DNA of 56,948 bases from Candidatus Wolfebacteria bacterium RIFOXYB1_FULL_54_12. GTDB lineage: Bacteria > Patescibacteriota > Minisyncoccia > UBA6257 > UBA9933. The stretch's first letter is position 1. Each line of letters opens with the position of its first letter. Shown piece by piece: positions 8,810 through 53,521 of this stretch. Made by a program: the position numbers and the translations under genes. The DNA is taken from NCBI GenBank assembly GCA_001793895.1, contig MGIT01000004.1, forward strand, positions 8,517 through 65,464, read 5' to 3'. The notes under the pieces are model-generated. The model searched no databases, was not told the DNA's origin, and was given only the letters and a program-made list of their open reading frames with translations.

Positions 8810-9538
8810 ATGCTTACAAAAAACCTGCAAAAGATCGGGCTCAATGAAAAGGAAGCAAAGGTCTATCTCGCTTCCCTTGAATTAGGGGAAGCCAACATCC
8901 AGCGTATTGCCAAAAAAGCGGGCATCAAACGCACCACCGCCTACGATATTCTTGCCTCCCTTAAGGAAAAGGGGCTTATTAGCACGGTCAAAAAAGATAA
9001 GCGCTTCTATTATTATGCCGAAAACCCTTCATCATTGATGGCCGATCTGGAGGAAAAGCAGGAGGCACTGAAGAAGATCATGCCCGAGCTTCTTTCGTTC
9101 GATAACCTCTTGGACCGCAAGCCAAAGATCCGCTATTTCGAAGGAGCGCAGGGACTGAAAGAAGTCTATATGGATACACTAAGCTATCCTGACCGGGAAA
9201 TGCTTTCGTGGGTAGCCGAAGAAGCGTTTTATGATTTTGATGTTGATTTTCTTGAATCCCGTTATCACCCCACACGGATCAAGAAAAAAATCTGGACCCG
9301 CGAGATCGCATCTGATGACCCTGCAACACGCGCCTATCAGGCGAAAGACGCAAGCAGTCTGCGCAAAACAAAGCTGCTTCCTTCGAAGCCGTTTCCTTTG
9401 GATGTCGGCATCAGCATCTATGGCGACAACAAAGTAGGGATCGTTTCCTTCAAAGAGGGGCTTGGCCTTATCATCGAAAGCGACAAGATCCACAACACGC
9501 TCAAAAGCATGTTCGAGTTCTTTTGGGAAAAGCTTTGA
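8810..9538 (+). CDS. TrmB-family transcriptional regulator
   Basis: N-terminal LNEKEAKVYLASLELGEANIQRIAKKAGIKRTTAYDILASLKEKGLI winged-HTH, 242 aa. Confidence 0.8.
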   Translation: MLTKNLQKIGLNEKEAKVYLASLELGEANIQRIAKKAGIKRTTAYDILASLKEKGLISTVKKDKRFYYYAENPSSLMADLEEKQEALKKIMPELLSFDNLLDRKPKIRYFEGAQGLKEVYMDTLSYPDREMLSWVAEEAFYDFDVDFLESRYHPTRIKKKIWTREIASDDPATRAYQAKDASSLRKTKLLPSKPFPLDVGISIYGDNKVGIVSFKEGLGLIIESDKIHNTLKSMFEFFWEKL

Positions 9539-9586
9539 CCCCTCTGAATTACAAAACCACCCTTGTCTTGCCGTAAACCTGACTAT

Positions 9587-9703
9587 TGTCATTCCGAGCC
9601 CATTCGTCCGCCAGCTGGCGGATCAGGGTAAACCGTAGTCGAGGAATCCGCAGTGCTTTTGCTACAGATCCCTCGGCTCCGTTTCACTGCACTCGGGATG
9701 ACA
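9587..9703. repeat. hairpin-repeat cluster
   Basis: tgtcattccgag...ccgccagctggcgg...ctcgggatgaca. Confidence 0.8.
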
Positions 9704-9735
9704 TGCCGAGTTTCGTAATTTAAAGTTGATAAGAA

Positions 9736-9772
9736 TAAAAAAAAGGCGGAAAACTTTTTAGGTTTTTCCGCC
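9736..9772 (-). terminator. Rho-independent terminator after the receiver-like operon
   Basis: GGCGGAAAAAC-loop-GTTTTCCGCC followed by T8 on the minus strand. Confidence 0.7.
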
Positions 9773-9933
9773 TCGTACTACTCTGCCTTTCTTGGTGGCT
9801 CCTCTGACCATCTGTCGCTTTTATTGCGTCCTTTTAGGACCTTTATTACACAACTCCGACGATCTCCATTGCCTTCCCCCGGCGCGGTTGCGTTTACCCG
9901 GGGCATACTTTCCAAGAGTGCAGACCTGGACCG

Positions 9934-10614
9934 TTATTCTTCCTGTTCGCCACTGGTGAGGCGATCCAGGATATCTTTCCAGTCCTTTCCCTTCTCGGCG
10001 TAGTCCACACCGGTAGCGTGGCAGGTGTAGCAATCGTAGGCGCTATCGTCTGCACGCCGCTGCTTACCCGTGCCGCCACATTCCCGGCAAGGTCCTTCGG
10101 TACCCGTTATACCAACCCTTTTGATATGATTGGTAAACAGCGCCTTGGCGCCTGCAACCGGGAACACTCCACGGTCCATGCGATCGAGCATGGCGCTCGC
10201 CGGATGACTGTGGTGGTCCATGTCGGTAACAACCGCCACGAACTTCGCGCCTTCCAGTGCCGCATCAATGGCGAGCGCCCAGCCGATCGGCATTTCCGTG
10301 CCGACATACTGCAGGCCATTGCCCCCTTGGGTTTTCCTACCCGCGGGCATCAGCAAATCAGAGAGCACCGCATCCCAGTAGGGAAGCTTGCACTCTTCCA
10401 TTGCCTTCGCCCACACTTCGCCGCACCAGCCATAGCCTGCCGCTTCTGCCTCTGCCTTGAGTCGCAGAAGTTTTTCCCTGTCGCACGGCTTTTCCCGCAC
10501 GAGCTCTACCGCTTCATCGTGGCTTCCCACTACGGTAAGCTCATGCTCTTCGCCGAGCGTCTGGTAGGCTGCCTTCCGGTGCGCGGCATTGTCATCAATA
10601 ACGAGAATCTTCAT
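9934..10614 (-). CDS. receiver (REC)-like domain protein with C-terminal DnaJ-type CxxCxGxG zinc-finger motifs
   Basis: MKILVIDDN start, DAVLSDLLMPAG acceptor-like segment, C-terminal CRECGGTGK and CYTCHATG. There is an insertion of about 40 aa before the acceptor Asp. Confidence 0.5.
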   Translation of the reverse strand: MKILVIDDNAAHRKAAYQTLGEEHELTVVGSHDEAVELVREKPCDREKLLRLKAEAEAAGYGWCGEVWAKAMEECKLPYWDAVLSDLLMPAGRKTQGGNGLQYVGTEMPIGWALAIDAALEGAKFVAVVTDMDHHSHPASAMLDRMDRGVFPVAGAKALFTNHIKRVGITGTEGPCRECGGTGKQRRADDSAYDCYTCHATGVDYAEKGKDWKDILDRLTSGEQEE

Positions 10615-28460: not shown

Positions 28461-29069
28461 CTATATTACATGCTTTAAATTTCCGGTGCTTCCCACTTCG
28501 AATACCTCCACAAAGCCTTCAAGTTTCATTTTCATAATATCGGCGATCAATTCCTTTGGTATTTTTGTCTTCCCGATCCACACGCTTTTCTGTGCCATTT
28601 TAAAATCCAAATTCCCCAACACCATCCTCAGCCATGTGCGCTTTTTCGTATATTCTTCCGGGATGTCAAACATAACTATAATAACCTTATTCCCCTTTTC
28701 CTTTGGATAATACACATCGGGATACCCTTCTTTGCTTTTTAAAAATTCCAACTTCTGTTTTCCGCGTTCTGTTATTTTATATTTCTTTTTTTCCACCCCG
28801 AGCTCTTCACTTATTAGCCCGTCTCTTTTTAATTTGTAGATCAGGCTATAATATCTGTTTGTCATCTTTCGCTCTTCTTCTTCGGTTCGCTTTCGCACAT
28901 CGCGTCCGGTCCGTATTTTGTTTAAATTATAACTAATGTCTATCGGCGATGCGCCGCGCCCACTTTCAACGACAGCCTCCAGCAGATCAAGCTGCGCGTC
29001 AATTCCCTCGCTTATCGCCTCCAATATTCTAAGTGATGATTTGTATCTCATGTTCTGTTTATCTTTCAT
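28461..29069 (-). CDS. PaaX-like / Cas2-fold C-terminal domain protein with a PadR-like wHTH segment (putative regulator)
   Basis: YSLIYKLKRDGLISE (wHTH-like) and VIIVMFDIPEEYTKKRTWLRMVLGNLDFKMAQKSVWIG (PaaX/Cas2-like beta-alpha-beta). Confidence 0.45.
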   Translation of the reverse strand: MKDKQNMRYKSSLRILEAISEGIDAQLDLLEAVVESGRGASPIDISYNLNKIRTGRDVRKRTEEEERKMTNRYYSLIYKLKRDGLISEELGVEKKKYKITERGKQKLEFLKSKEGYPDVYYPKEKGNKVIIVMFDIPEEYTKKRTWLRMVLGNLDFKMAQKSVWIGKTKIPKELIADIMKMKLEGFVEVFEVGSTGNLKHVI

Positions 29070-31131: not shown

Positions 31132-32049
31132 TCAATCGCTTTTATTTTTTCTTCTTCGGCCGTGGAATGTTTGGTGTATCTCCTTGAGCTCCTTGTTGGT
31201 TATGTGCGTGTATATTTGCGTGGTCGCTATGTTGGCATGGCCGAGCATTTCTTGTACCGACCGTATGTCCGCTCCGTTGATCAACAGGTCGGTGGCGAAT
31301 GAATGCCGCAACATGTGCGGATGCACATGCTTTGCGATGCCCGCCTTGCGCGAATAAAAATCAACCAGCCGTTGCACGGTTCGCGGAACGATTCGCCCTA
31401 TGACCTTCGGGCTTTTTGCCTTTGTGTAGCTCACAAACATCGCCTCCTCTGCGTCTCCCCTCTTTTCCAAATAATTTTTAATTTCCTTTACCGAGCGCCC
31501 GTCCAAAAATACAACCCGCAGCTTATTTCCCTTTCCGCGCACCGTTACTTCTCCCCGATCGAAATCCATATAACGGTTCAAACTGCACAGCTCCGATATG
31601 CGCAATCCGGTCGAGAATAATACCTCGAGTATCGCGCGATCGCGCAATGCCTTTGTGTCGCCTCCGCTCACGGCGTTCAAGAGCCGTTCCAGTTCGTCGT
31701 ACTCCATAACCTCTATTTGCCGTGCCGGCACTTTGGGCAGCTCTATCTTGTCGGGCGATAATACTTTGTGGTCATTTTTTATCAAATACTTCAAAAAGTT
31801 TCTCAACGCTATTATATAGTAGCTCTGCGTAGACTTGCTATACCGATCCCCTCTGCCGTTCGATGATCGCGCCAAGTGCAGCCGAAAATCCCGCACCCGC
31901 TCCACGGTTATGTCCGCTTCGCTTTTGATTCCCTCGACCTCGAAAAACTTTTTCAAATATCGCCCGTAATTCTCCCCCGTCTTTTGCGAGCGATTTTTTT
32001 CAATTTCGAGATAGTCGAGATATTCCTTTAACAGCACGTTTACGTCCAT
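31132..32049 (-). CDS. XerC/XerD-family tyrosine site-specific recombinase
   Basis: HPHMLRHSFATDLLINGADIRSVQEMLGHANIATTQIYTH, 305 aa. Confidence 0.85.
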   Translation of the reverse strand: MDVNVLLKEYLDYLEIEKNRSQKTGENYGRYLKKFFEVEGIKSEADITVERVRDFRLHLARSSNGRGDRYSKSTQSYYIIALRNFLKYLIKNDHKVLSPDKIELPKVPARQIEVMEYDELERLLNAVSGGDTKALRDRAILEVLFSTGLRISELCSLNRYMDFDRGEVTVRGKGNKLRVVFLDGRSVKEIKNYLEKRGDAEEAMFVSYTKAKSPKVIGRIVPRTVQRLVDFYSRKAGIAKHVHPHMLRHSFATDLLINGADIRSVQEMLGHANIATTQIYTHITNKELKEIHQTFHGRRRKNKSD

Positions 32050-32169
32050 TACACACAGTATACGGTATACGGTAGAGGGTATAAAGGAAGGGGGGGGAAG
32101 GGTATATGGTATAGGGTATAGGGTATTAGGTATGGGAGGGGGGGGAAAAATAACCTACGACTGATAACC

Positions 32170-32745
32170 GATGACTAATAACGGGGTGCGGGAAAATGAC
32201 ACACTCCCCTGTATTGTCATCCCCGCGGAGGCGGGGATCCACTACCACTGCAATGGAATGCGAGGAGGTTTGTCATCCCGCACCACGATGCGGGATCCAG
32301 AGTTTTCTGCAGTAGCGGTGCCTTGTGCTAAAGACTCTGGATCCCGTGTCGGAGCACGGGATGACAATGCGGGGGGGGATGGGTTGGAGATGCGAGATGA
32401 GGGGGGGGGGGAGATGGGAGGGGGGAAAAAGAGCCATCCTGAACTTGACCCTCGGCGTTGCTAACAATCCGTCAGCCGACGGAGAGTGTGCAACGTGCCG
32501 GGATACTCGAAGCGCATAAGGTCTCGCGCTTCAAGTGATTCAGAATCTCGCGATAAACAATAAGATTCCGAAACAAGTTCGGAATGACAGATAGTCGAGG
32601 CGGGGATCCGGTGTTCAAATGCAAAATACTGGATTCCCGTTTTCACGGGAATGACAATGCAAGATACTAGATCCCGGCCTCCGCCGGGATGACAATGCGA
32701 AATACTGGATTCCCGCCTCCGCGGGAATGACAGAGAGGGGGATTT
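32170..32745. repeat. hairpin-repeat array including a triple-hairpin composite and a nested-insert element (32448..32536)
   Basis: Direct reading. Confidence 0.85.
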
Positions 32746-32767
32746 TGCCGAATTTTTGTAGAACAGG

Positions 32768-33115
32768 TGTGAAACAATAATGTTTCACATTCGGCAAAAC
32801 TAAAAAATATGAGATAAAATGTTTCACGTGAAACACTTTATCTCATATTTAGCCCCTAGGTGTGAAACAAAGTTGTTTCACACCGTGCGCAGTGTTTCAC
32901 GTGAAACAATTTATCTCATTTTTCGCCCCTGCTCGCCTTTTTAGCGATTTGTGAAATCTGTCATTTTGAACAAATTGTTTCACGTGAAACAATTTGCCTC
33001 GTTTTAGGGGCCTAAGTGTGAAACAAAGTTGTTTCACACCGTGCACAGTGTTTCACGTGAAACACTTTATCTCGTTTTACCCCGGATTCCTTGAATAATT
33101 GTTTCACGTGAAACA
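32768..33115. other. parS (ParB-binding, centromere-like) site array: 5 perfect TGTTTCACGTGAAACA plus 3 everted palindromes
   Basis: Perfect 16-mers at 32820, 32893, 32976, 33049 and 33100. GTGTGAAACA-N4-TGTTTCACAC-type palindromes at 32768, 32860 and 33016. Confidence 0.8.
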
Positions 33116-33171
33116 CTTTTGCTCACTTTTTGGCATTTTGCCTATTTATTGGTTCGGCAGTTACCCCTGAG

Positions 33172-33180
33172 TTATCCACA
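33172..33180 (+). other. perfect DnaA box TTATCCACA
   Basis: Exact 9-mer, embedded in the inverted repeat GAGTTATCC...GGATAACTC. Confidence 0.5.
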
Positions 33181-33255
33181 CCCGATTGGGGATAACTCGG
33201 CAAGAGCGGGGGGCGGGTATACGGTACGGGGGGGGGAAAGAGATCAGATGAGAGG

Positions 33256-33325
33256 TGTCATCCTGAACTTGATTCAGGATCTCGTGATTAAACAATAAGA
33301 TTCCGGCTCGGAGGCCGGAATGACA
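33256..33325. repeat. ~70-bp double-hairpin element
   Basis: Direct reading. Confidence 0.85.
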
Positions 33326-33391
33326 ACACCCCTCCCCCGGGGGGGCGCGCGCAGGATGGCGTGGCACGGGTTCGGGTTGTATACTGTTGGC

Positions 33392-33802
33392 ATGCATGAT
33401 CACCTTCAAACTGGGTCCCTTGGCGAGCAAGTCGCAGCCAACTTCCTTTCCAATCTCGGGCACACCATACTCGATCGAAATGTTCGCATGAAGTTTGGAG
33501 AAATAGACATCATCTCCCGCGATCCCATGGGGGTGCTTATTTTTACCGAGGTTAAAACGCTCAGCCGAGCATATGCGCTTTCCCCTGAAGACAACCTGAC
33601 CCGGGCAAAGTTTAGAAAACTTTCCCGCGCTTGTTCCGCCTATGCCAACGCTCGCCCCGAGCTTGTAAGCAACTCACTCGGTTGGCGCATAGACCTCGTT
33701 GCCGTCGTCATTAATTTTACTCTTCCTTTAGCTCCCGAGTACCGCACATTTTCTTTCGGCAAAAATAATTTTGCCGTATCACGATACGAAAATATTTCTT
33801 AA
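33392..33802 (+). CDS. yraN: YraN-family (UPF0102) endonuclease-like protein
   Basis: GEQVAANFLSNLGHTILDRNVRMKFGEIDIISRD...LIFTEVKT. The upstream part of the listed ORF is repeat DNA. Confidence 0.8.
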   Translation: MHDHLQTGSLGEQVAANFLSNLGHTILDRNVRMKFGEIDIISRDPMGVLIFTEVKTLSRAYALSPEDNLTRAKFRKLSRACSAYANARPELVSNSLGWRIDLVAVVINFTLPLAPEYRTFSFGKNNFAVSRYENIS

Positions 33803-33804
33803 GG

Positions 33805-34020
33805 CAATGCACTGGATCCCGTGTCGTAGCACGGGATGACAATGCGGGGGGGGATGGGTTGGAGATGCGAGATGAGGGGGGGGATGGGAGGGTGGATGAC
33901 AATGCGCTTAAGTGTCACCCCGGCGAAGGCCGGGGTCCAGTGTTTTCTGCGGTGGTAACATATAGATACTCAGACTCTGGATCCCGTGTCGGAGCACGGG
34001 ATGACAATACAGGGGGGAGG
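33805..34020. repeat. hairpin-repeat array with a triple-hairpin composite
   Basis: Direct reading. Confidence 0.8.
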
Positions 34021-34599: not shown

Positions 34600-35305
34600 T
34601 CACGGATTACCGTTCCGCTCGGAATGACAGAGGGGCGGAGTGTCATCCTGAACTTGTTTCAGGATCTCTCCGAGAGAACACAAGATTCCGGCTCGGAGGC
34701 CGGAATGACGGGGAGAGGATCGGGATGACAAGGCGAGGCAATACGAATAAACTGCAGATTCCTCTCCGCCGGCTGGCGGATCCGAATGACAATGCGAAGA
34801 TGGATTCCCGCCTGCGCGGGAATGACAGAGGGGAGAGCGGGATGGCAAGGCGGAACTGGATACCGGCTTTCGCCGGTATGACAATGCGGGGAGGGATGAC
34901 GGAGAAAAACAAATCTCATTTTTAAAAAATAACTTCGCTAAAAAAAATTTTACTACACACATGCAATTGATTTCCAAATTTAACAAAATGATGAAAAGAT
35001 GGATTCCCGCCTCCGCGGGAATGACAGGGAGGGGAAGGATGACGGGGAAGTGGATACCGGTCCCCGATCAGGTCGAGGACGGGCCCTCACCCGCCGGTAT
35101 GACAATGCGGGGAGGGATGGCGGAGAGGAGGAGTGTCATCCTGAACTCGTTTCAGGATCTCTCCGAGAGAACACAAGATTCCGGCTCGGAGGCCGGAATG
35201 ACAGGGAAAGGAGGAGTGACAATACAAAATAAAATGACGACATTAAAAAACAAAATGACAAAGCAGGGAGGGATGACGGGGAAGTGGATTCCCGCCTTCG
35301 CGGGA
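34600..35305. repeat. hairpin-repeat array upstream of the giant gene (two near-identical double-hairpin units at 34641..34709 and 35134..35203)
   Basis: Direct reading; translated as WIPASAGMT-type pseudo-peptide in the listed ORF. Confidence 0.85.
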
Positions 35306-38300
35306 ATGACAACACGCAAAACTCTCCGCACATTTGCAACTCGCGGGGTTGTGTTTGCTATGGTACTGATGATGGCGTTGTCGAATGTGTTTATGGCGAA
35401 CGCGGCGACGTATACATTTATACAGACCGACTGGAGCGGCGGGCAATCGGCGGCGACCGCTGTTGACCCGACCAACCTTACCGGATGGACGCAATATGCA
35501 ACTGCGAGCACTTCGCTGGCCATTGGCACAAGCGTTGCGCTGACCACTACCAGCACTTCCATTACACAGACCGATGAAGGCGCGACCAATACCGGTTTTA
35601 ATTTGAGCGGAAGCAGTTTTTCCCAAACGGAAGTCAGCGGTACCGGAGCTTCCGCATCGGTTCTGCTTCAGAACACTTCGGTGTCTCCGGGGACGAAACA
35701 AATAGCTGCGGGGAATTACTTTTCCTGCGCGCTCAAAACCGATGGGTCGGTGATGTGTTGGGGAAAAAATTCTACCGGCACACTCGGGGATGGCACAAAC
35801 ACCCAAAGAAACATTCCCACCCAAGTGTCCGGCTTAACTGCCGGTACGGTGAAGGCGCTCACCGCGGGAGCTAACCATACCTGTGCACTCAAGACCGACG
35901 GATCGGTAGTGTGTTGGGGGAGTAATTATTATGGCCAAGGCGGGAATGGTGCTGACACGACTAGATACATCCCTACTCAAGTCTCTGGCCTGACCGCGGG
36001 TACGGTAAAGGAAATTACTGCGGGAGATAATCATACCTGCGCACTCAAGACCGACGGATCGGCTGTGTGCTGGGGGCAAAATGACAACGGTCAAATTGGG
36101 GATACTACTCTCACGAGTCGATACATCCCCACCCAGGTATCCGGCTTGACCGCAGGCACGGTAAAGGGAATTTCCGGGGGAACTTACCATACCTGCGCAC
36201 TCAAGACCGACGGATCGGCGGTGTGTTGGGGAAATGGTGATAATGGTCGGCGTGGGGATGGCACCACCACACAAGTAACTATCCCCACTCAGGTGTCCGG
36301 CTTGACCGCAGGCACGGTGAAAGAAATTGTGGCGAGATATGATCATACCTGCGCACTCAAGACCGACGGATCGGCTGTGTGTTGGGGAAGTAATACATAT
36401 GGACAAATGGGGGATAATACCACCACGGAGAGACTCATCCCTACCCAGGTTTCCGGGTTGACGGCAGGCACGGTGAATAAAATCGTTACAGAATATCGTC
36501 ACACCTGCGCACTCAAAACCGACGGTTCGGCGGTGTGCTGGGGGTATAACGCATATGGACAGATAGGGGATAATACCACCACACAGAGACTCGTCCCTAC
36601 CCAGGTTTCCGGGTTGACGGCAGGCACGGTGAAAGAAATTACCGGGGGATATTACCACACCTGCGCACTTAAGACCGATGGGTCGGTGATATGTTGGGGA
36701 TTCAACGGCAATGGCCAACTCGGTGATAACACCACTACGCAAAGACTCATCCCCACCCAGGTATCCGGTTTGGTGACCGGGAGCGGGCAGGAGAAGATTG
36801 TTAAGGGAGATTTCCACACCTGCGCACTCAAGAACGACGGATCGGTAGTGTGTTGGGGTCAGAACACGGAAGGTCAGATCGGGGACAACACTACTGCAAA
36901 TAAGTCCATCCCTACACAGGTCTCGGGATTGACTGCCGGCACGGTGAAGGAAATTACCGGGGGAACATATCACACCTGCGCACTCAAGACCGACGGTTCG
37001 ATGGTGTGTTGGGGGGGTAATTATACCGGTCAGATCGGGGATAATACCACCACTCAAAGAAACGTTCCCACCCAAGTGTCTGGACTTACGGCTGGCACGG
37101 TAAAGGAAATTACTGCGGGAGCTACTCATACCTGCGCACTTAAGACCGACGGATCGGCGGTGTGTTGGGGGTATAATATTTTCAGTCAGCTTGGAGATAG
37201 TACCACCGAAAACAAATCCATCCCCACCCAGGTGTCCGGCTTGACTGCAGGCACGGTGAATGAAGTTGATGTAGGAGATAACCACTCCTGCGCACTCAAG
37301 ACCGATGGAACAATGGTGTGTTGGGGGCTTAATAGCAGTGGACAACTTGGCGACAATACCACCGCAAATAAATCCATCCCCACCCAGGTGTCCGGCTTGA
37401 CTGCAGGTACGGTGAAAGAAATTATGGCGGGAGGTTATCACACCTGCGCGCTCAAGACCGATGGAGCAATGGTGTGTTGGGGGCTTAATTCTTATGGTCA
37501 AATTGGGGATAATACCGAGACCCAAAGACTCATCCCCACTCAGGTGTCCGGCTTGACTGCAGGTACGGTAAATGAAATTACGGTAGGATATAACCACACC
37601 TGCGCACTCAAGACCGACGGTTCGGCGAGGTGTTGGGGGGGTAACAGCCATGGCCAACTCGGAGATAGCACCGCTACATACAGAATCATTCCCACCCAGG
37701 TGTCCAGCTTGACTGCCGGCACTGTAAAGGAAGTTGTGGCGGGATATCTCAACGCTTGTGCTATTAAGACCGATAGTGCGGCTGTGTGTTGGGGATATAA
37801 TGGCCAGGGTCAGCTTGGGGACGGGACTCTCGAAGGTAAATATATCCCCACCCAGGTCTCGGGCCTGACCGCAGGAGGAGGCGGTAGCGTATATGCCGCA
37901 TCCGGCACATACACGTCCGGTGCGATGGACATCGGCGAGATTTCAGGATATACGACACTCGCCTACACTGCATCCACGAGCGTGCAGGCGACGCTGACTA
38001 TCGACGCGCGCAGTGGAAACACGGCAACGCCCGATGGCACATGGACCGCGTGGCAGACCGGCATTGCAACGGGCGGAAGCATTTCCACACTCGGCACAAA
38101 CCGCTACTTCCAGTACCAGGCAAATTTAGCAACAAGCGACACCGGGCAAACGCCAACCCTGGACTCCGTTTCTGTCGGCTACAGCGCTTATGCAACCAAC
38201 CAAACACTGACCTCGTCGAAGTATGACACCGGCGCAGTGGAAAACAGCATGGGTTCCCTTATATGGGATGAGGACGCTTCCTTGCCGACCGGCACGACCA

Positions 38301-41300
38301 TAACCGTTTCCCTTGGCACCGCGTCGAGCTCGACTGGATTGGATACCGCAACATGGTACGGTTTTACCAGTACATCAACAAACTGTGCAAAGGTAAGCAC
38401 TACCGTTACCTGCCCTTCCGCGGCCCTTTCGTCCGCTTCGGCAACATTGACCGACAGCACGGATGACCGATGGTACCATTACAAGGTACTAATGACTTCA
38501 ACCGGAGCAAATGCGCCCACGCTGCCGGAGGTCCGCGTGCAATATGTGGTAAACGCCCCGCCGGAACTTGCGGGAGTTACCGCCCTACAGATCGCAACTT
38601 CAAGCGATGCCAATTGGGGCAAGGTACAGATAGACTACACGGTGCGCGACATAGACACGGATACCGGATCGGTCACCCAGGGATACATAACCCCGTCATT
38701 TGAATACACCATCGGCGGCGGGTGGATCGCCATCGCATCTTCTACGCTTTCCGCGGGAGCGACCTCCAATAAACTTGTTACGCAGGTCGGTTTTACCGCA
38801 TATAGCGCACTTTGGGATGTGAAGACCGCGATTCCCGGACAATATTCCGCAAGCGCCCAGATCCGCGTGACCGCCAATGACAATGAAGCCGCGAATAGCA
38901 CGGGAACAGGAACCGCGACGGCCTTTACCGTCGACACCACGGCTCCGACCGTTTCGGGAACCATCAATGGAACTTCCAATGAAATCTCATTTTCCGCCAG
39001 CGACGACGGGCTTGTTTCCTATCGCATATCGAACAATAGCGATGGCTCCTACGACAGCGTAAATGCAAGCTCGGGCCAATGGATCGCCGCGGGTGCAACG
39101 TCGGCAAGCGCCACCACCACGTGGGTACTCGCCGGGGCACCGGACAACCAGATCGCCCATCTTAACGGCCTCGATATCTATGGAAACGCGGCAACGACAA
39201 CCATCGTAGGGCCGGCCACGCCGATCTACTTCGACATCAAGGACGCATCGAACGTGCTTATCGACAACTACAAGATATTCCTGTCGTGGAAGACATACAC
39301 CGCGACCACCTCGGCGTCGTTCAACCGGTATGAGCTGTACCGCTCAACAGATGGATCGAGCTATGGATTGCAGAGCACCCTTACCAACTCCGCAACCAAC
39401 TACTACGCCGACTCCGGGCTTTCTTCGTCGACCACCTACTACTATAAGCTGTTGGCCGTCGACGGGGATGGGGATGTTTCCCCGTATTCCACCGCGCTCA
39501 GCCACATGCCCAGCGGACAGGGGGGAACCGATTCTACCCCGCCCGCGCTGTCGCTGATAACGGCGACCGATACCCAGTCGACCTATTCGAAGGTTACATT
39601 CACGACAAACGAAATCGCATTCGGCACGATCGAATATCATGCCGCAGGAGGGTCGCCGTATGCACTCTCCGAAGTAAAGAGCACTATTGAAACCAGCCAC
39701 ACCATAGTACTTACCGATCTTACGCCGAACACCGTCTATACGTATCGCGTAAAGGCGACCGACATCGCCGGCAACATAACCACCGATGACAATGCCGGGG
39801 CGGGTTACACGTTTACGACCCGCGGCGGACCCATCATTACCGATGTAACGGCAAGCCTTACCGATGACCGCAATGCGACCATCGTGTGGAACACGAATGT
39901 GGATTCGAATTCCACCTTGGTTTATGCCGAAAATGCCATAACGCTTACGAACGGAATAAACGCGACCGCAGTGCAGGATACTACGTTTGCCGGAGGCGCA
40001 GGCCCGCTGTACCAGCACAAGATCGTGCTGACCAGCCTTACCCCGCGCACGACCTACTACTACTATGTGCAGTCGACCGATGCCGACGGCAATGCGGGCG
40101 TGGACAAGAACGGACTCAACTACTACACCTTCACCACGTCGTATGACCGCAAGGCGCCGACCGTTTCCGCCATCTTGACTCCGGTGATCACCGAGACCGC
40201 CGTGGTCGTCCTGTGGAAGACCGACGAACTCTCCGATTCCCAGGTGTCTTACGGCACCGAATCCGGCACCTACACCGAAACCACCACGCTCGACACCAAT
40301 ATGTCGATCATGCACGCGGTTACCCTGACCGGCCTTACCGCAGCTACGCAATATTACTACGTTGTACTTTCAAGCGATCCGGCCGGCAATGCAACGACTT
40401 CCCCGGAAAAGACCGTGACCTCGGCCAGCGCAGCGGAAGTGCAGATCGTTACCGTCGGAGGCGGAGGCGGAGCCGGAATGACAAACAATCCGCCGCCGGA
40501 AGTAAAGGACACCACGTCGGCCATAATCAGCAACATCAAGGTTGCGAGCACGACCGCATTCGGCGCGACGCTTTCGTTTGAAACGAGCGAGCCAACCGTG
40601 ATCGGATTGCGTTACGGCCAGACCACCGCGTATGACCGTGCGGAAGCAAGCATCGATTGGAAAATATCGCATGAGATCAAACTCAGCGGCTTGCGCTTGG
40701 GAACCATGTACCATTTCCAGATCAAGGCAATCGATAAGGGAGGCAACGAAGCCTTTTCCGACGACAGCACCTTTACGACGAAGTTTATTGCGGAAGCAAG
40801 CGAAGGCGCACGAACAATAGAAAACCTTCAGCAGTATGAGCAGGAGATCGAAGATTCGCTCGCATCCATTCTGCCGTCCATTCTGCCTCCGTTCGTTGAA
40901 GATGCACGGGTGACCGACATAACGGAAAGTGCAGCTACCATTAATTGGCGAACGAACATCAATTCGTATGCGACCGTTTCGTATGCGACCGAAGAAGAGT
41001 ACTTGGCCGCTACCACAACCCGAACCGTATACACAGGAGAGGTTTCCGATATTACCACCAAGACCAGAGAGCATTCACTGATTCTTATCGGACTCAAGCC
41101 GAATACGACCTACCACTTTAAGTCGAAGTCATTCTCCGTGCCGCAGGTGGTCGGCGAAGGCCGCGATATGACCTTTACCACGAAGGCGCCTGCCGTACAG
41201 GCGAGCGTGATCGACGTAAAGACCACATCGTTCCGCGCCGCATGGACGACCGACGTTCCGGCAAGTTCCATTGTGGAGTACAAGAACCTGGCCACGGGAG

Positions 41301-41851
41301 TCATCGAGCGCATCATCAACGAGCCGTTGGTAACTTACCACGATATCCTCGTCGACAATCTTCGCCCGGGAACCCGCTATGAAGTAAAGGTGCTCGGCTA
41401 CAGCGCATCAGGCAACCTGCTTTCATCGGGAGCAGTCATGAATGTACTGACTTCGACCGACATTTCCGCACCAAAGATCAGCAACTTCAAGGTTGACGGC
41501 GCATTGGTACCGGGCCGCACGGACCGCATCCAGACCATCGTGTCATGGACGACCGACGAACCGGGAACCGGCATCGTGGAATATCAGGAGGGAGCGGGAA
41601 GCGTAGCCGGCGGGTTTGCCAACAAGGTAACCCTTACCGACAACTATGTAACCAACCACGTAGTCATCTTGACCAACCTGAAGCCGGGAACCATCTACCA
41701 GTTTAGGATCACATCGGCAGACCAGGCAGGCAACACCGCCAGCTTCGGTCCGAGAACGATCATCACCCCGCAAAAGGGCGAGTCGATCTTCGACGTCATC
41801 TTCAAGAACTTTGAAGACACCTTTAAGTTCTTGAGGGGTGCGGGACAGTAA
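35306..41851 (+). CDS. giant secreted surface protein: signal peptide, 14 RCC1-like blades, Thr/Ser-rich beta region, multiple Fn3-like modules
   Basis: MTTRKTLRTFATRGVVFAMVLMMALSNVFMANA-AT signal. Blades CALKTDGS.VCWG.N..GQ.GD.T...R.IPTQVSGLTAGTVKEI..G..HT. C-terminal W.T..P..S.V.YG...Y.Y.V...D..GN modules. The maximal ORF starts at 34961. Confidence 0.85.
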   Translation: MTTRKTLRTFATRGVVFAMVLMMALSNVFMANAATYTFIQTDWSGGQSAATAVDPTNLTGWTQYATASTSLAIGTSVALTTTSTSITQTDEGATNTGFNLSGSSFSQTEVSGTGASASVLLQNTSVSPGTKQIAAGNYFSCALKTDGSVMCWGKNSTGTLGDGTNTQRNIPTQVSGLTAGTVKALTAGANHTCALKTDGSVVCWGSNYYGQGGNGADTTRYIPTQVSGLTAGTVKEITAGDNHTCALKTDGSAVCWGQNDNGQIGDTTLTSRYIPTQVSGLTAGTVKGISGGTYHTCALKTDGSAVCWGNGDNGRRGDGTTTQVTIPTQVSGLTAGTVKEIVARYDHTCALKTDGSAVCWGSNTYGQMGDNTTTERLIPTQVSGLTAGTVNKIVTEYRHTCALKTDGSAVCWGYNAYGQIGDNTTTQRLVPTQVSGLTAGTVKEITGGYYHTCALKTDGSVICWGFNGNGQLGDNTTTQRLIPTQVSGLVTGSGQEKIVKGDFHTCALKNDGSVVCWGQNTEGQIGDNTTANKSIPTQVSGLTAGTVKEITGGTYHTCALKTDGSMVCWGGNYTGQIGDNTTTQRNVPTQVSGLTAGTVKEITAGATHTCALKTDGSAVCWGYNIFSQLGDSTTENKSIPTQVSGLTAGTVNEVDVGDNHSCALKTDGTMVCWGLNSSGQLGDNTTANKSIPTQVSGLTAGTVKEIMAGGYHTCALKTDGAMVCWGLNSYGQIGDNTETQRLIPTQVSGLTAGTVNEITVGYNHTCALKTDGSARCWGGNSHGQLGDSTATYRIIPTQVSSLTAGTVKEVVAGYLNACAIKTDSAAVCWGYNGQGQLGDGTLEGKYIPTQVSGLTAGGGGSVYAASGTYTSGAMDIGEISGYTTLAYTASTSVQATLTIDARSGNTATPDGTWTAWQTGIATGGSISTLGTNRYFQYQANLATSDTGQTPTLDSVSVGYSAYATNQTLTSSKYDTGAVENSMGSLIWDEDASLPTGTTITVSLGTASSSTGLDTATWYGFTSTSTNCAKVSTTVTCPSAALSSASATLTDSTDDRWYHYKVLMTSTGANAPTLPEVRVQYVVNAPPELAGVTALQIATSSDANWGKVQIDYTVRDIDTDTGSVTQGYITPSFEYTIGGGWIAIASSTLSAGATSNKLVTQVGFTAYSALWDVKTAIPGQYSASAQIRVTANDNEAANSTGTGTATAFTVDTTAPTVSGTINGTSNEISFSASDDGLVSYRISNNSDGSYDSVNASSGQWIAAGATSASATTTWVLAGAPDNQIAHLNGLDIYGNAATTTIVGPATPIYFDIKDASNVLIDNYKIFLSWKTYTATTSASFNRYELYRSTDGSSYGLQSTLTNSATNYYADSGLSSSTTYYYKLLAVDGDGDVSPYSTALSHMPSGQGGTDSTPPALSLITATDTQSTYSKVTFTTNEIAFGTIEYHAAGGSPYALSEVKSTIETSHTIVLTDLTPNTVYTYRVKATDIAGNITTDDNAGAGYTFTTRGGPIITDVTASLTDDRNATIVWNTNVDSNSTLVYAENAITLTNGINATAVQDTTFAGGAGPLYQHKIVLTSLTPRTTYYYYVQSTDADGNAGVDKNGLNYYTFTTSYDRKAPTVSAILTPVITETAVVVLWKTDELSDSQVSYGTESGTYTETTTLDTNMSIMHAVTLTGLTAATQYYYVVLSSDPAGNATTSPEKTVTSASAAEVQIVTVGGGGGAGMTNNPPPEVKDTTSAIISNIKVASTTAFGATLSFETSEPTVIGLRYGQTTAYDRAEASIDWKISHEIKLSGLRLGTMYHFQIKAIDKGGNEAFSDDSTFTTKFIAEASEGARTIENLQQYEQEIEDSLASILPSILPPFVEDARVTDITESAATINWRTNINSYATVSYATEEEYLAATTTRTVYTGEVSDITTKTREHSLILIGLKPNTTYHFKSKSFSVPQVVGEGRDMTFTTKAPAVQASVIDVKTTSFRAAWTTDVPASSIVEYKNLATGVIERIINEPLVTYHDILVDNLRPGTRYEVKVLGYSASGNLLSSGAVMNVLTSTDISAPKISNFKVDGALVPGRTDRIQTIVSWTTDEPGTGIVEYQEGAGSVAGGFANKVTLTDNYVTNHVVILTNLKPGTIYQFRITSADQAGNTASFGPRTIITPQKGESIFDVIFKNFEDTFKFLRGAGQ
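35726..37876 (+). repeat. 14 tandem 156-bp coding repeats (one of 159 bp, the last partial)
   Basis: Unit boundaries counted from the Cys codon at 35726. Long nucleotide-identical stretches between units. Confidence 0.9.
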
Positions 41852-53101: not shown

Positions 53102-53521
53102 TTATGTGTGGCGTTTGATGCGGTCACATGACCGCTCCCTTGTCCGTTCGTTCAGGGCGTAAGACACTGTCATCCTCGACCCAACCTTGAGCGCATCGAA
53201 TATCCCAGAACTTACCCTCTCGGCGAAGATGCAGCCGTCGTTGCAGAAAATATCCAGCATCAGCTCGCATTCCCCGGACTTTCGGACCGCCTCCCACCTG
53301 TTTTCAGGCACCCGTATTACCGGGGCACTGGCCTTGGCGCGCGGGTAACAAATGTACTTTGCCGCTACCGCGCCTTCCACATCATGCGCCGATATGTTTT
53401 GGTTTTTCGCCTTCGCCCTGTCCTTGGCGTTGTGAAACAGAACCACGATAATGCCGCCAATCGCGGCGAGTACCGCCGCCATGACCACTCCAAATGCTAT
53501 TTGCACCATTGCTTCACTCAC
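53102..53521 (-). CDS. hypothetical 139-aa protein with an N-terminal TM (GTG start)
   Basis: GTG at 53521 lies 6 nt after GGAGG. VSEAMVQIAFGVVMAAVLAAIGGIIVVLF... The listed ORF extends to 53680 without an RBS. Confidence 0.5.
   Translation of the reverse strand: MSEAMVQIAFGVVMAAVLAAIGGIIVVLFHNAKDRAKAKNQNISAHDVEGAVAAKYICYPRAKASAPVIRVPENRWEAVRKSGECELMLDIFCNDGCIFAERVSSGIFDALKVGSRMTVSYALNERTRERSCDRIKRHT

Follow-up and report, generated by a model that had tools for sequence, protein, structure and literature searches.

The window analysed here is a stretch of 56,948 bp from contig MGIT01000004.1 of Candidatus Wolfebacteria bacterium RIFOXYB1_FULL_54_12. Its central feature is a dense array of parS sites, the palindromes bound by the partition protein ParB, lying in the non-coding spacer between a gene for a Xer-type tyrosine recombinase (xer) and yraN. 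This spacer, put at about 1.3 kb by an earlier reading of the letters without database searches (hereafter the sequence-only reading), measures 1270 bp. The other genes of the window include rpsL, rpsG, fusA, rpsI, gyrA, the C-terminal part of dnaE, three aminoacyl-tRNA synthetases and four tRNAs, together with ComEC, pilins of the type IV secretion type and TsaE, and this housekeeping content places the window on the chromosome. The closest relative of its Xer, 98% identical, belongs to Candidatus Wolfebacteria bacterium RIFOXYD12_FULL_48_21, and identical proteins occur on groundwater metagenome contigs.

The array and its site types

When the whole window is scanned, the 16-mer TGTTTCACGTGAAACA is found in five exact copies (Table 1), against 0.02 matches expected by shuffling, and the rest of the window holds no further copy even when two mismatches are allowed. 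All five are identical to the parS consensus TGTTNCACGTGAAACA, as the sequence-only reading had claimed for the same positions. The sites are packed inside 296 bp with irregular start-to-start gaps of 73, 83, 73 and 51 bp, and Tandem Repeats Finder, applied to 32767-33115, reported no regular tandem array. The higher-order repeat proposed earlier is real, with a period of 156 bp instead of about 155, and on one side every parS of the window carries the conserved flank (C/A)TTT(A/G/T)(T/C)CTC. The palindrome around parS1, first given as 38 bp, is in fact longer, covering 46 bp (32805-32850) with arms of 23 nt and one non-complementary pair beside the core.

Extended palindromes around parS were considered as a core feature of the array and rejected: they are present at parS1 and at all four sites of a related locus, L013 (L numbers designate the loci collected for comparison), the other sites lack them, and among the reference-genome loci listed they accompany about 10% of parS sites. 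In L013 (9553-9741), each of the four perfect parS lies within its own perfect palindrome of 32-38 bp, with a period of 50-52 bp, and the flanks differ in sequence from site to site, palindromy nonetheless being kept. As single strands, the everted pairs (-11.4 kcal/mol) and parS1 (-15 kcal/mol) form stable hairpins in folding calculations; a structure-based role of the palindromes is possible, though such stability follows from any palindrome. A search of the array spacer against Rfam returned no RNA family, only sub-threshold hairpin matches to miRNA models. A promoter or terminator reading was also set aside, the spacer giving one weak promoter-like match and terminator-like matches which are the palindromes themselves and the hairpins of a repetitive extragenic palindromic (REP)-like family.

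Between the parS sites lie half-sites. The two arms, turned outward as GTGAAACA-N4-TGTTTCAC, form three everted pairs (starts 32769, 32862 and 33018) which occur nowhere else in the window, none being expected by chance; with their additional conserved bases, the full pairs read GTGTGAAACA-N4-TGTTTCACA(C/T). The sequence-only reading had seen the three pairs, but the first begins at 32767 and not at 32768, and its right arm ends in CACAT and not CACAC. Each pair is composed of two orphan half-parS 9-mers, TGTTTCACA, with 4 bp between them. True orphans have an A at position 9, where parS carries G. The heptamer GTTTCAC, one arm of parS, is contained in all six orphan sites of the window, and orphan copies of TGTTTCAC number six inside the array versus one in all the rest of the 57 kb (at 53432).

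Two smaller palindromic elements accompany the array. The inverted repeat around the first everted pair (32743-32799) is related to a palindrome of the form TCGGCAA(N0-1)TTGCCGA, which stands at one end of the array in L011 (9767), L013 (9298) and L306 (5489) and whose halves, in the window, are split apart to flank E1. Past parS5, a small GGCA/TGCC palindrome is reminiscent of the GGCAA-TTGCC palindromes beside the arrays of the relatives, a likeness limited to resemblance.

Table 1. Features of the xer-yraN region (window coordinates)
Feature	Position	Strand	Remarks
Xer-type tyrosine recombinase	31132-32049	-	left boundary gene; housekeeping-type, thousands of homologues in Patescibacteria
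D1, 81-nt direct repeat, left copy	32337-32417	+	with the right copy, brackets array and yraN
Inverted repeat TTTTGCCGAA / TTCGGCAAAA	32743-32752 / 32790-32799		around E1
Everted pair E1	32767-32789		GTGTGAAACA-ATAA-TGTTTCACA
parS1	32820-32835		perfect TGTTTCACGTGAAACA; core of a near-perfect palindrome of 46 bp
Higher-order unit (parS, everted pair, parS), two copies	32816-32927 and 32972-33083	+	86% identical
Everted pair E2	32860-32883		GTGTGAAACA-AAGT-TGTTTCACAC; 9 bp before parS2
parS2	32893-32908		perfect; followed by flank ATTTATCTCAT
parS3	32976-32991		perfect
Everted pair E3	33016-33039		GTGTGAAACA-AAGT-TGTTTCACAC; 9 bp before parS4
parS4	33049-33064		perfect; followed by flank CTTTATCTCGT
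parS5	33100-33115		perfect
Small GGCA/TGCC palindrome	33130-33142		TTGGCATTTTGCC; past parS5
DnaA box TTATCCACA	33172-33180	+	convergent with the next box; pair 125 bp upstream of the yraN ATG
DnaA box TTATCCCCA	33187-33195	-
yraN	33320-33802	+	right boundary gene; UPF0102, PD-(D/E)XK nuclease
D1, right copy	33812-33892

Conservation in relatives and frequency of dense arrays

Comparison with relatives, which the sequence-only reading had proposed, showed that four Wolfebacteria species share the array's place between xer and yraN. In the three species other than that of the window, whose Xer or YraN are 66-88% identical to the window proteins, the layout is the same: half-sites, then four to six perfect parS, then a pair of DnaA boxes. 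Where the window has five perfect parS, three everted N4 pairs and convergent TTATCCACA and TTATCCCCA boxes, L011/L012 (Xer 88%) presents six perfect parS, one everted N4 pair and one tandem pair, and the convergent boxes GTTATCCACA-N6-TGTGGATAAC; L303/L302 (YraN 66%) has five perfect parS, two everted N4 pairs and a convergent box pair as in L011; and L013 (Xer 74%) has four perfect parS and a fifth with one mismatch, one tandem pair, and one perfect and one degenerate box. L011 additionally carries the palindrome GGCAAATTGCC, and in L013 the accessory elements have changed sides with respect to xer and yraN, as an inversion of the entire module would leave them. In the alignment of the window with L011, 118 of 131 motif columns are identical (90%), compared with 138 of 276 (50%) for the remaining columns, where gaps are many. 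Judged by this alignment, the motifs are under purifying selection, and both the position and the layout of the array are conserved.

Outside these species, the Liptonbacteria contig L306 carries the palindrome TCGGCAATTGCCGA and then eight parS, seven of them perfect and one near-perfect, the final site ending 5 bp before the start codon of yraN. In L090, a complete Paceibacterota chromosome, seven perfect parS immediately precede the UPF0102 gene. In all, a parS array stands directly upstream of yraN in six Paceibacteria lineages, and a UPF0102 profile search of the collected loci gave no match beyond the known yraN/UPF0102 loci. A functional link between yraN and parS was nevertheless set aside. 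YraN is reported as a D-loop nuclease partner of ComM in natural transformation and yraN also exists without parS (L255, L304, L305), so the linkage appears to be positional. In L304 (7302-10387) and L305 (3301-6399), yraN lies two small genes away from a ComM-type helicase (Mg_chelatase/MCM), a neighbourhood which fits the YraN-ComM partnership.

A non-functional expansion of palindromic repeats, resembling REP elements or miniature inverted-repeat transposable elements or born of replication slippage, could be envisaged in a spacer so full of REP-like hairpins, the more so as an open reading frame (ORF) of the window encodes an IS200-like Y1 transposase domain, single strands of the palindromes fold into stable structures and the 156-bp unit is duplicated. 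However, both the 16-mer and the everted motif are absent outside the array in the 57 kb and in the flanks of the relatives, which, within these sequences, speaks against the earlier concern that the 16-mer might be a generic repeat scattered at high copy. Exact conservation across species against about 50% identity of the spacers, and the identity of the sequence with a known protein-binding consensus, make such an expansion very improbable.

The REP-like hairpins themselves, GGATTCCCGCCTCCGCGGGAATGACA with variants such as AGATTCCGGCTCGGAGGCCGGAATGACA, fill intergenic spacers and count about nine exact copies in the window (positions near the array include 32703-32732, 32618-32732 and 33297-33325). 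The exact 26-mer is present on at least 118 metagenome contigs from many unrelated environments; neither ParB nor parS was found in the 118 loci listed (715 kb), which do not come from this organism. The ORF with the IS200-like Y1 transposase domain (PF01797; 52206-53000, + strand) is a candidate REP-associated tyrosine transposase and could be linked to the hairpin repeats.

The sequence-only reading had leaned towards the centromere of a plasmid or phage. An integrated plasmid, phage or other mobile element would agree with the tyrosine recombinase gene next to the array, with the D1 repeats that bracket it, with one assembly in which the bracketed segment is missing, and with the close parS pairs found on 43 contigs of IMG/VR. 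In that assembly (L001, ANAN16-1 scaffold_244, 9097-10001) the D1 copies are joined exactly and 1475 bp are absent, corresponding to all the parS and yraN, through either a real deletion carried by part of the population or a collapse in assembly. But the bracketed segment contains only the array and yraN, housekeeping genes stand on both sides, the array is found at one and the same position in four species, genes for replication, partition or phage functions are lacking and no parAB adjoins the array, and blastn against plasmid and phage collections gave no match. The xer gene, too, is chromosomal and conserved: more distantly related Wolfebacteria (Xer 69-74%; L014, L253-L256) have it next to rpsO-pnp, with no parS within 10 kb of it. 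Of the iterated plasmid or phage centromeres (sopC or P1 parS type), sopC of F is a regular tandem array of plasmid-specific sequence, located on the plasmid beside its own sopAB operon. The window, unlike sopC, has irregular spacing (51-83 bp), the chromosomal consensus, a chromosome as replicon and no partition genes nearby; the likeness is that of dense short inverted repeats in non-coding DNA which jointly nucleate one partition complex (PMC3597684). A mobile origin of the array can hardly be maintained on this evidence.

The density of the sites is not, by itself, exceptional. Dense arrays were sought as two perfect parS 30-60 bp apart, with one genome per species in 185,579 species, and at least 120 loci with such close pairs were found in reference genomes. 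The matches listed come from Bacillota, Actinomycetota, Bacteroidota, Chloroflexota, Acidobacteriota, Pseudomonadota, Spirochaetota and the Candidate Phyla Radiation (CPR), and among them arrays of 4-10 sites exist in Lachnospiraceae, Bacilli, Clostridia, Acidimicrobiia and others. At 11 of the 120 loci listed, at least four perfect parS fall within 400 bp; examples are L060 (Lachnospiraceae) with seven sites in about 340 bp, L095 (Bacilli) with ten, most of them on a 55-bp period, L131 with six and L070 with five. The earlier statement that chromosomal parS are usually scattered single copies was therefore too strong, and for annotation, a dense parS array on a chromosome is a common feature that ought not to be taken for the mark of a mobile element. 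Density alone is ordinary; what is new is the composite layout in an unstudied lineage.

Compared with the model chromosomal clusters (the parS cluster of Caulobacter crescentus, parS1-4 of Pseudomonas aeruginosa and the 10-site cluster of Corynebacterium glutamicum), the array has the same 16-bp palindromic consensus and, like them, gathers several sites at one intergenic locus conserved in relatives (PMC5815017, PMC4368675, PMC7083940). Loading of ParB with cytidine triphosphate (CTP) and nucleation of a partition complex, common to these clusters, are presumed for the window. The array differs in being much denser (five sites in 296 bp versus sites spread over kilobases), in not adjoining parAB and in having half-site pairs interleaved, and its proximity to the origin is not apparent.

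Half-sites, DnaA boxes and a possible replication origin

The everted pairs, proposed earlier as a second site type, are real and conserved, since they are found again in L011 (n=1) and L303 (n=2) with conserved arms, but they are built from two orphan half-parS 9-mers. Their spacer is fixed at N4 in length and variable in sequence (ATAA, AAGT, AAAA, TTTT), and from the everted pair to the next parS the distance is 29 bp centre to centre, both in the window (E2, E3) and in L303. The 9-mer TGTTTCACA is found in every Paceibacteria lineage having orphan half-sites, with 6 copies beside the array in the window, 4 in L011, 4 in L303, 3 in L013, 10 in L090 and 5 in L091, although its geometry depends on the lineage: three Wolfebacteria species have everted N4 pairs, L011 and L013 tandem ones, L090 half-sites abutting parS or 8 bp upstream of it, and L091 split-inverted pairs with N7. 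No everted pair occurs among the 120 reference-genome parS-pair loci listed.

Half-parS binding has been described for P. aeruginosa ParB, which binds hundreds of half-parS heptamers, including GTTTCAC, without spreading, and an affinity for half-parS was noted too for V. cholerae ParB2 and Burkholderia ParBs (PMC5961200, PMC10419367). The likeness to the window is close in that GTTTCAC is one of the six heptamers enriched at the P. aeruginosa ParB peaks in chromatin immunoprecipitation, and in that, according to the data from this species, a single parS arm suffices for binding and no spreading starts there. The P. aeruginosa sites, however, number in the hundreds, are dispersed over the genome and lie mostly inside genes, whereas those of the window are confined to the array, paired in everted orientation at a fixed 4 bp, and extended to an invariant 9-10-mer.

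The convergent pair of DnaA boxes upstream of yraN constitutes a third type of site. Boxes of the sequence TTATCCACA flank the arrays of five lineages (the window, L011, L303, L013 and L091), and are otherwise scarce: in the flanks of the 120 reference-genome loci listed (114 kb), L091 accounts for three of the five matches to TTATNCACA, L090 for one and a locus outside the CPR for the last, so that the same flanks without L090 and L091 (about 112 kb) hold a single box. Together with the orphan 9-mers TGTTTCACA, the N4 everted pairs and the lack of parB within 6-10 kb, the adjacent TTATCCACA boxes are lineage-specific accessories of these arrays. In the account of Mera 2014 given in PMC6399470, DnaA binds the centromere of Caulobacter, where consensus boxes likewise lie beside parS at a distance from dnaA, a likeness which suggests communication between initiator and segregation locus. 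Unlike that centromere, the window has two predicted boxes conserved as a convergent pair upstream of yraN, and those of L091 form fusions with split half-site pairs.

On the Parcubacteria contig L091 (4448-4920), a higher-order repeat of about 220 bp consists of TGTTTCAC-N7-GTGAAACA-CT-TTATCCACA, that is a split half-site pair with a perfect box, followed by three 52-bp units with one parS each; a very AT-rich stretch comes after the repeat, and the region is origin-like in look. The composite aligns with the parS flank of the window, GTGAAACA-CT-TTATCTCAT, and this flank may be a decayed DnaA box.

Such features raise the question of whether the locus is a replication origin, part of one, or a coupled DnaA-regulatory site, with DnaA assembling on the boxes and on TGTTTCACA and the parS embedded in oriC. 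The boxes adjoin arrays in five Paceibacteria lineages, L091 has three perfect TTATCCACA boxes interleaved with parS ahead of its AT-rich stretch, and TGTTTCACA and TTATCCACA share positions 1, 4 and 6-9. The GC-skew check suggested earlier gave a divided answer. In L011, and apparently in L090, the skew switches from negative to positive within 1-2 kb of the array; in the window and in L013, which has the same arrangement, no switch occurs at the array. To either side of the array, the + strand of the window has a skew of -0.1 to -0.19, interrupted only by a positive island of 7 kb (31-38 kb), and rpsL-rpsG-fusA and rpsI (43-48 kb) are transcribed towards the array, so the combination of a skew sign change with divergent leading-strand genes expected at oriC is found neither in the window nor in L013.

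Gene neighbourhoods are similarly divided. Genes jag and yidC lie 6 kb from the array of L306, and gyrA lies 10 kb from that of the window, but there is no dnaA or dnaN within 6-10 kb at any locus. A giant RCC1-repeat gene is found on the opposite side and strand in L011 and L303 relative to the window, as after an origin-pivoted inversion; the L011 skew switch, for its part, coincides with a rearrangement breakpoint. The window has just two consensus boxes and no marked AT-rich block that could serve for unwinding, against three boxes and an AT-rich stretch in L091. Overall, we consider it improbable that the locus is an origin or belongs to one.

Two observations concern the same surroundings. 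The giant gene encodes a surface-type protein of 2296 aa with RCC1 repeats and fibronectin-III domains (window 34961-41851, + strand; L011 11105-17812; L303 778-7851); in L011 and L303 it is found on the side of xer and in the opposite strand, whereas the window has it on the side of yraN, a swap which indicates an inversion pivoting on the array. Runs of 6-11 G and repeats of the (GGGTATA)n type on the + strand (32058-32148, 32372-32430, 33205-33235 and 33845-33890) flank the array on both sides and are the source of most of the local positive skew.

Probable ParB loading and the interpretation of the locus

In the published model, a ParB dimer that has bound parS takes up CTP and closes, after which it slides. 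Because the sites are the exact consensus and under strong purifying selection, this clamp model leads us to the reading that the array is probably a chromosomal centromere, a parS locus which loads ParB and is equipped with accessory half-sites and DnaA boxes. Among the proposals of the sequence-only reading, that of a specialised ParB loading platform is the one best borne out, exact copies being kept across species while the spacers diverge.

At the window locus, ParB binding, the role of the half-sites and DnaA binding are what we infer from the DNA. Each perfect palindrome would serve to load ParB: after binding there, a dimer would take up CTP, close as a clamp and slide off, and five sites in 296 bp would provide a high loading rate at a single locus, nucleating one partition complex that could then be moved by ParA, used for SMC loading, or both. 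For the everted pairs, the likeliest role is to bind ParB by its helix-turn-helix without loading it, which would retain or concentrate ParB or limit its sliding; less likely, they receive a second dimeric protein. The adjacent pair of DnaA boxes probably brings DnaA to the centromere, by analogy with Caulobacter.

Several points weigh against this reading. Neither ParB, ParA nor SMC genes were found in the window; a Pfam search of its 40 ORFs gave no ParA, ParB or DnaA domain, and a local ParB hidden Markov model built from 58 ParB ORFs (53 loci) was likewise negative, in agreement with what had been noted earlier. The same local model detected no ParB at 11 Paceibacteria loci, where it covered 6-10 kb around the array or around xer/yraN, while a ParB ORF lies inside the 8-kb locus at 53 of the 120 reference-genome loci listed. 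The skew of the window, negative on both sides of the array, also fails to place it near the origin. The everted geometry, following the clamp model, should be unable to support the engagement of the N domains that palindromic parS triggers, and the strict A at position 9 of the orphans has no explanation under simple half-site binding by ParB.

Given that the ninth base is invariant and the spacing fixed, another protein might bind the sites instead. It could be a lineage-specific helix-turn-helix dimer or a divergent, orphan ParB-like protein, for which the everted pairs would be the true or a second operator, their geometry pointing to a distinct recognition mode. No Paceibacteria array is linked to a parB, and parB was detected in only 19% of Paceibacterales species (PMC12704722), a figure which also counts against the ParB reading and whose bearing on Wolfebacteria depends on the order they belong to. 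But most Patescibacteria orders have kept a chromosomal parB (Saccharimonadales 97%, UBA9973 98%, UBA6257 89%; PMC12704722 Dataset S1), the 16-mer is the exact pan-bacterial parS consensus, and no candidate binder emerged, the unannotated neighbouring ORFs giving no DNA-binding matches. Such a protein is an unlikely reader of the sites, less likely than the origin discussed above.

If the array is a ParB-loading centromere, the locus would be a compact, sequence-defined one with three separable site types: the loading palindrome, the everted half-site pairs and the DnaA boxes. Half-parS binding has so far been an unexplained genome-wide property of some ParBs, and half-site pairs that function here would be the first case of such binding built into a centromere at a fixed geometry. 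We found nothing relevant on chromosome segregation in literature combining parS or ParB with CPR/Patescibacteria. The genomes of these bacteria are about 1 Mb in size, and many are without recognisable cell-cycle genes.

A more speculative proposal, which we put forward tentatively and with considerable doubt, is that Paceibacteria (Wolfebacteria, Liptonbacteria and relatives) possess a composite centromere module which stands alone upstream of yraN, without linkage to parAB, and runs in the conserved order TCGGCAA-TTGCCGA palindrome, half-parS pairs, dense parS and DnaA boxes. The everted TGTTTCACA-N4 pairs would there serve a second protein, or a second mode of binding, as operator, and DnaA would be recruited so that initiation and segregation are coupled at one 450-bp element in ultra-small, possibly ParA-poor cells.

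Finally, the window encodes at 28461-29069 (- strand) a protein with a PadR-like winged helix and a PaaX/Cas2-like domain, which may be a regulator; in the window as in L011 and L013, 3-9 kb separate its gene from the array.

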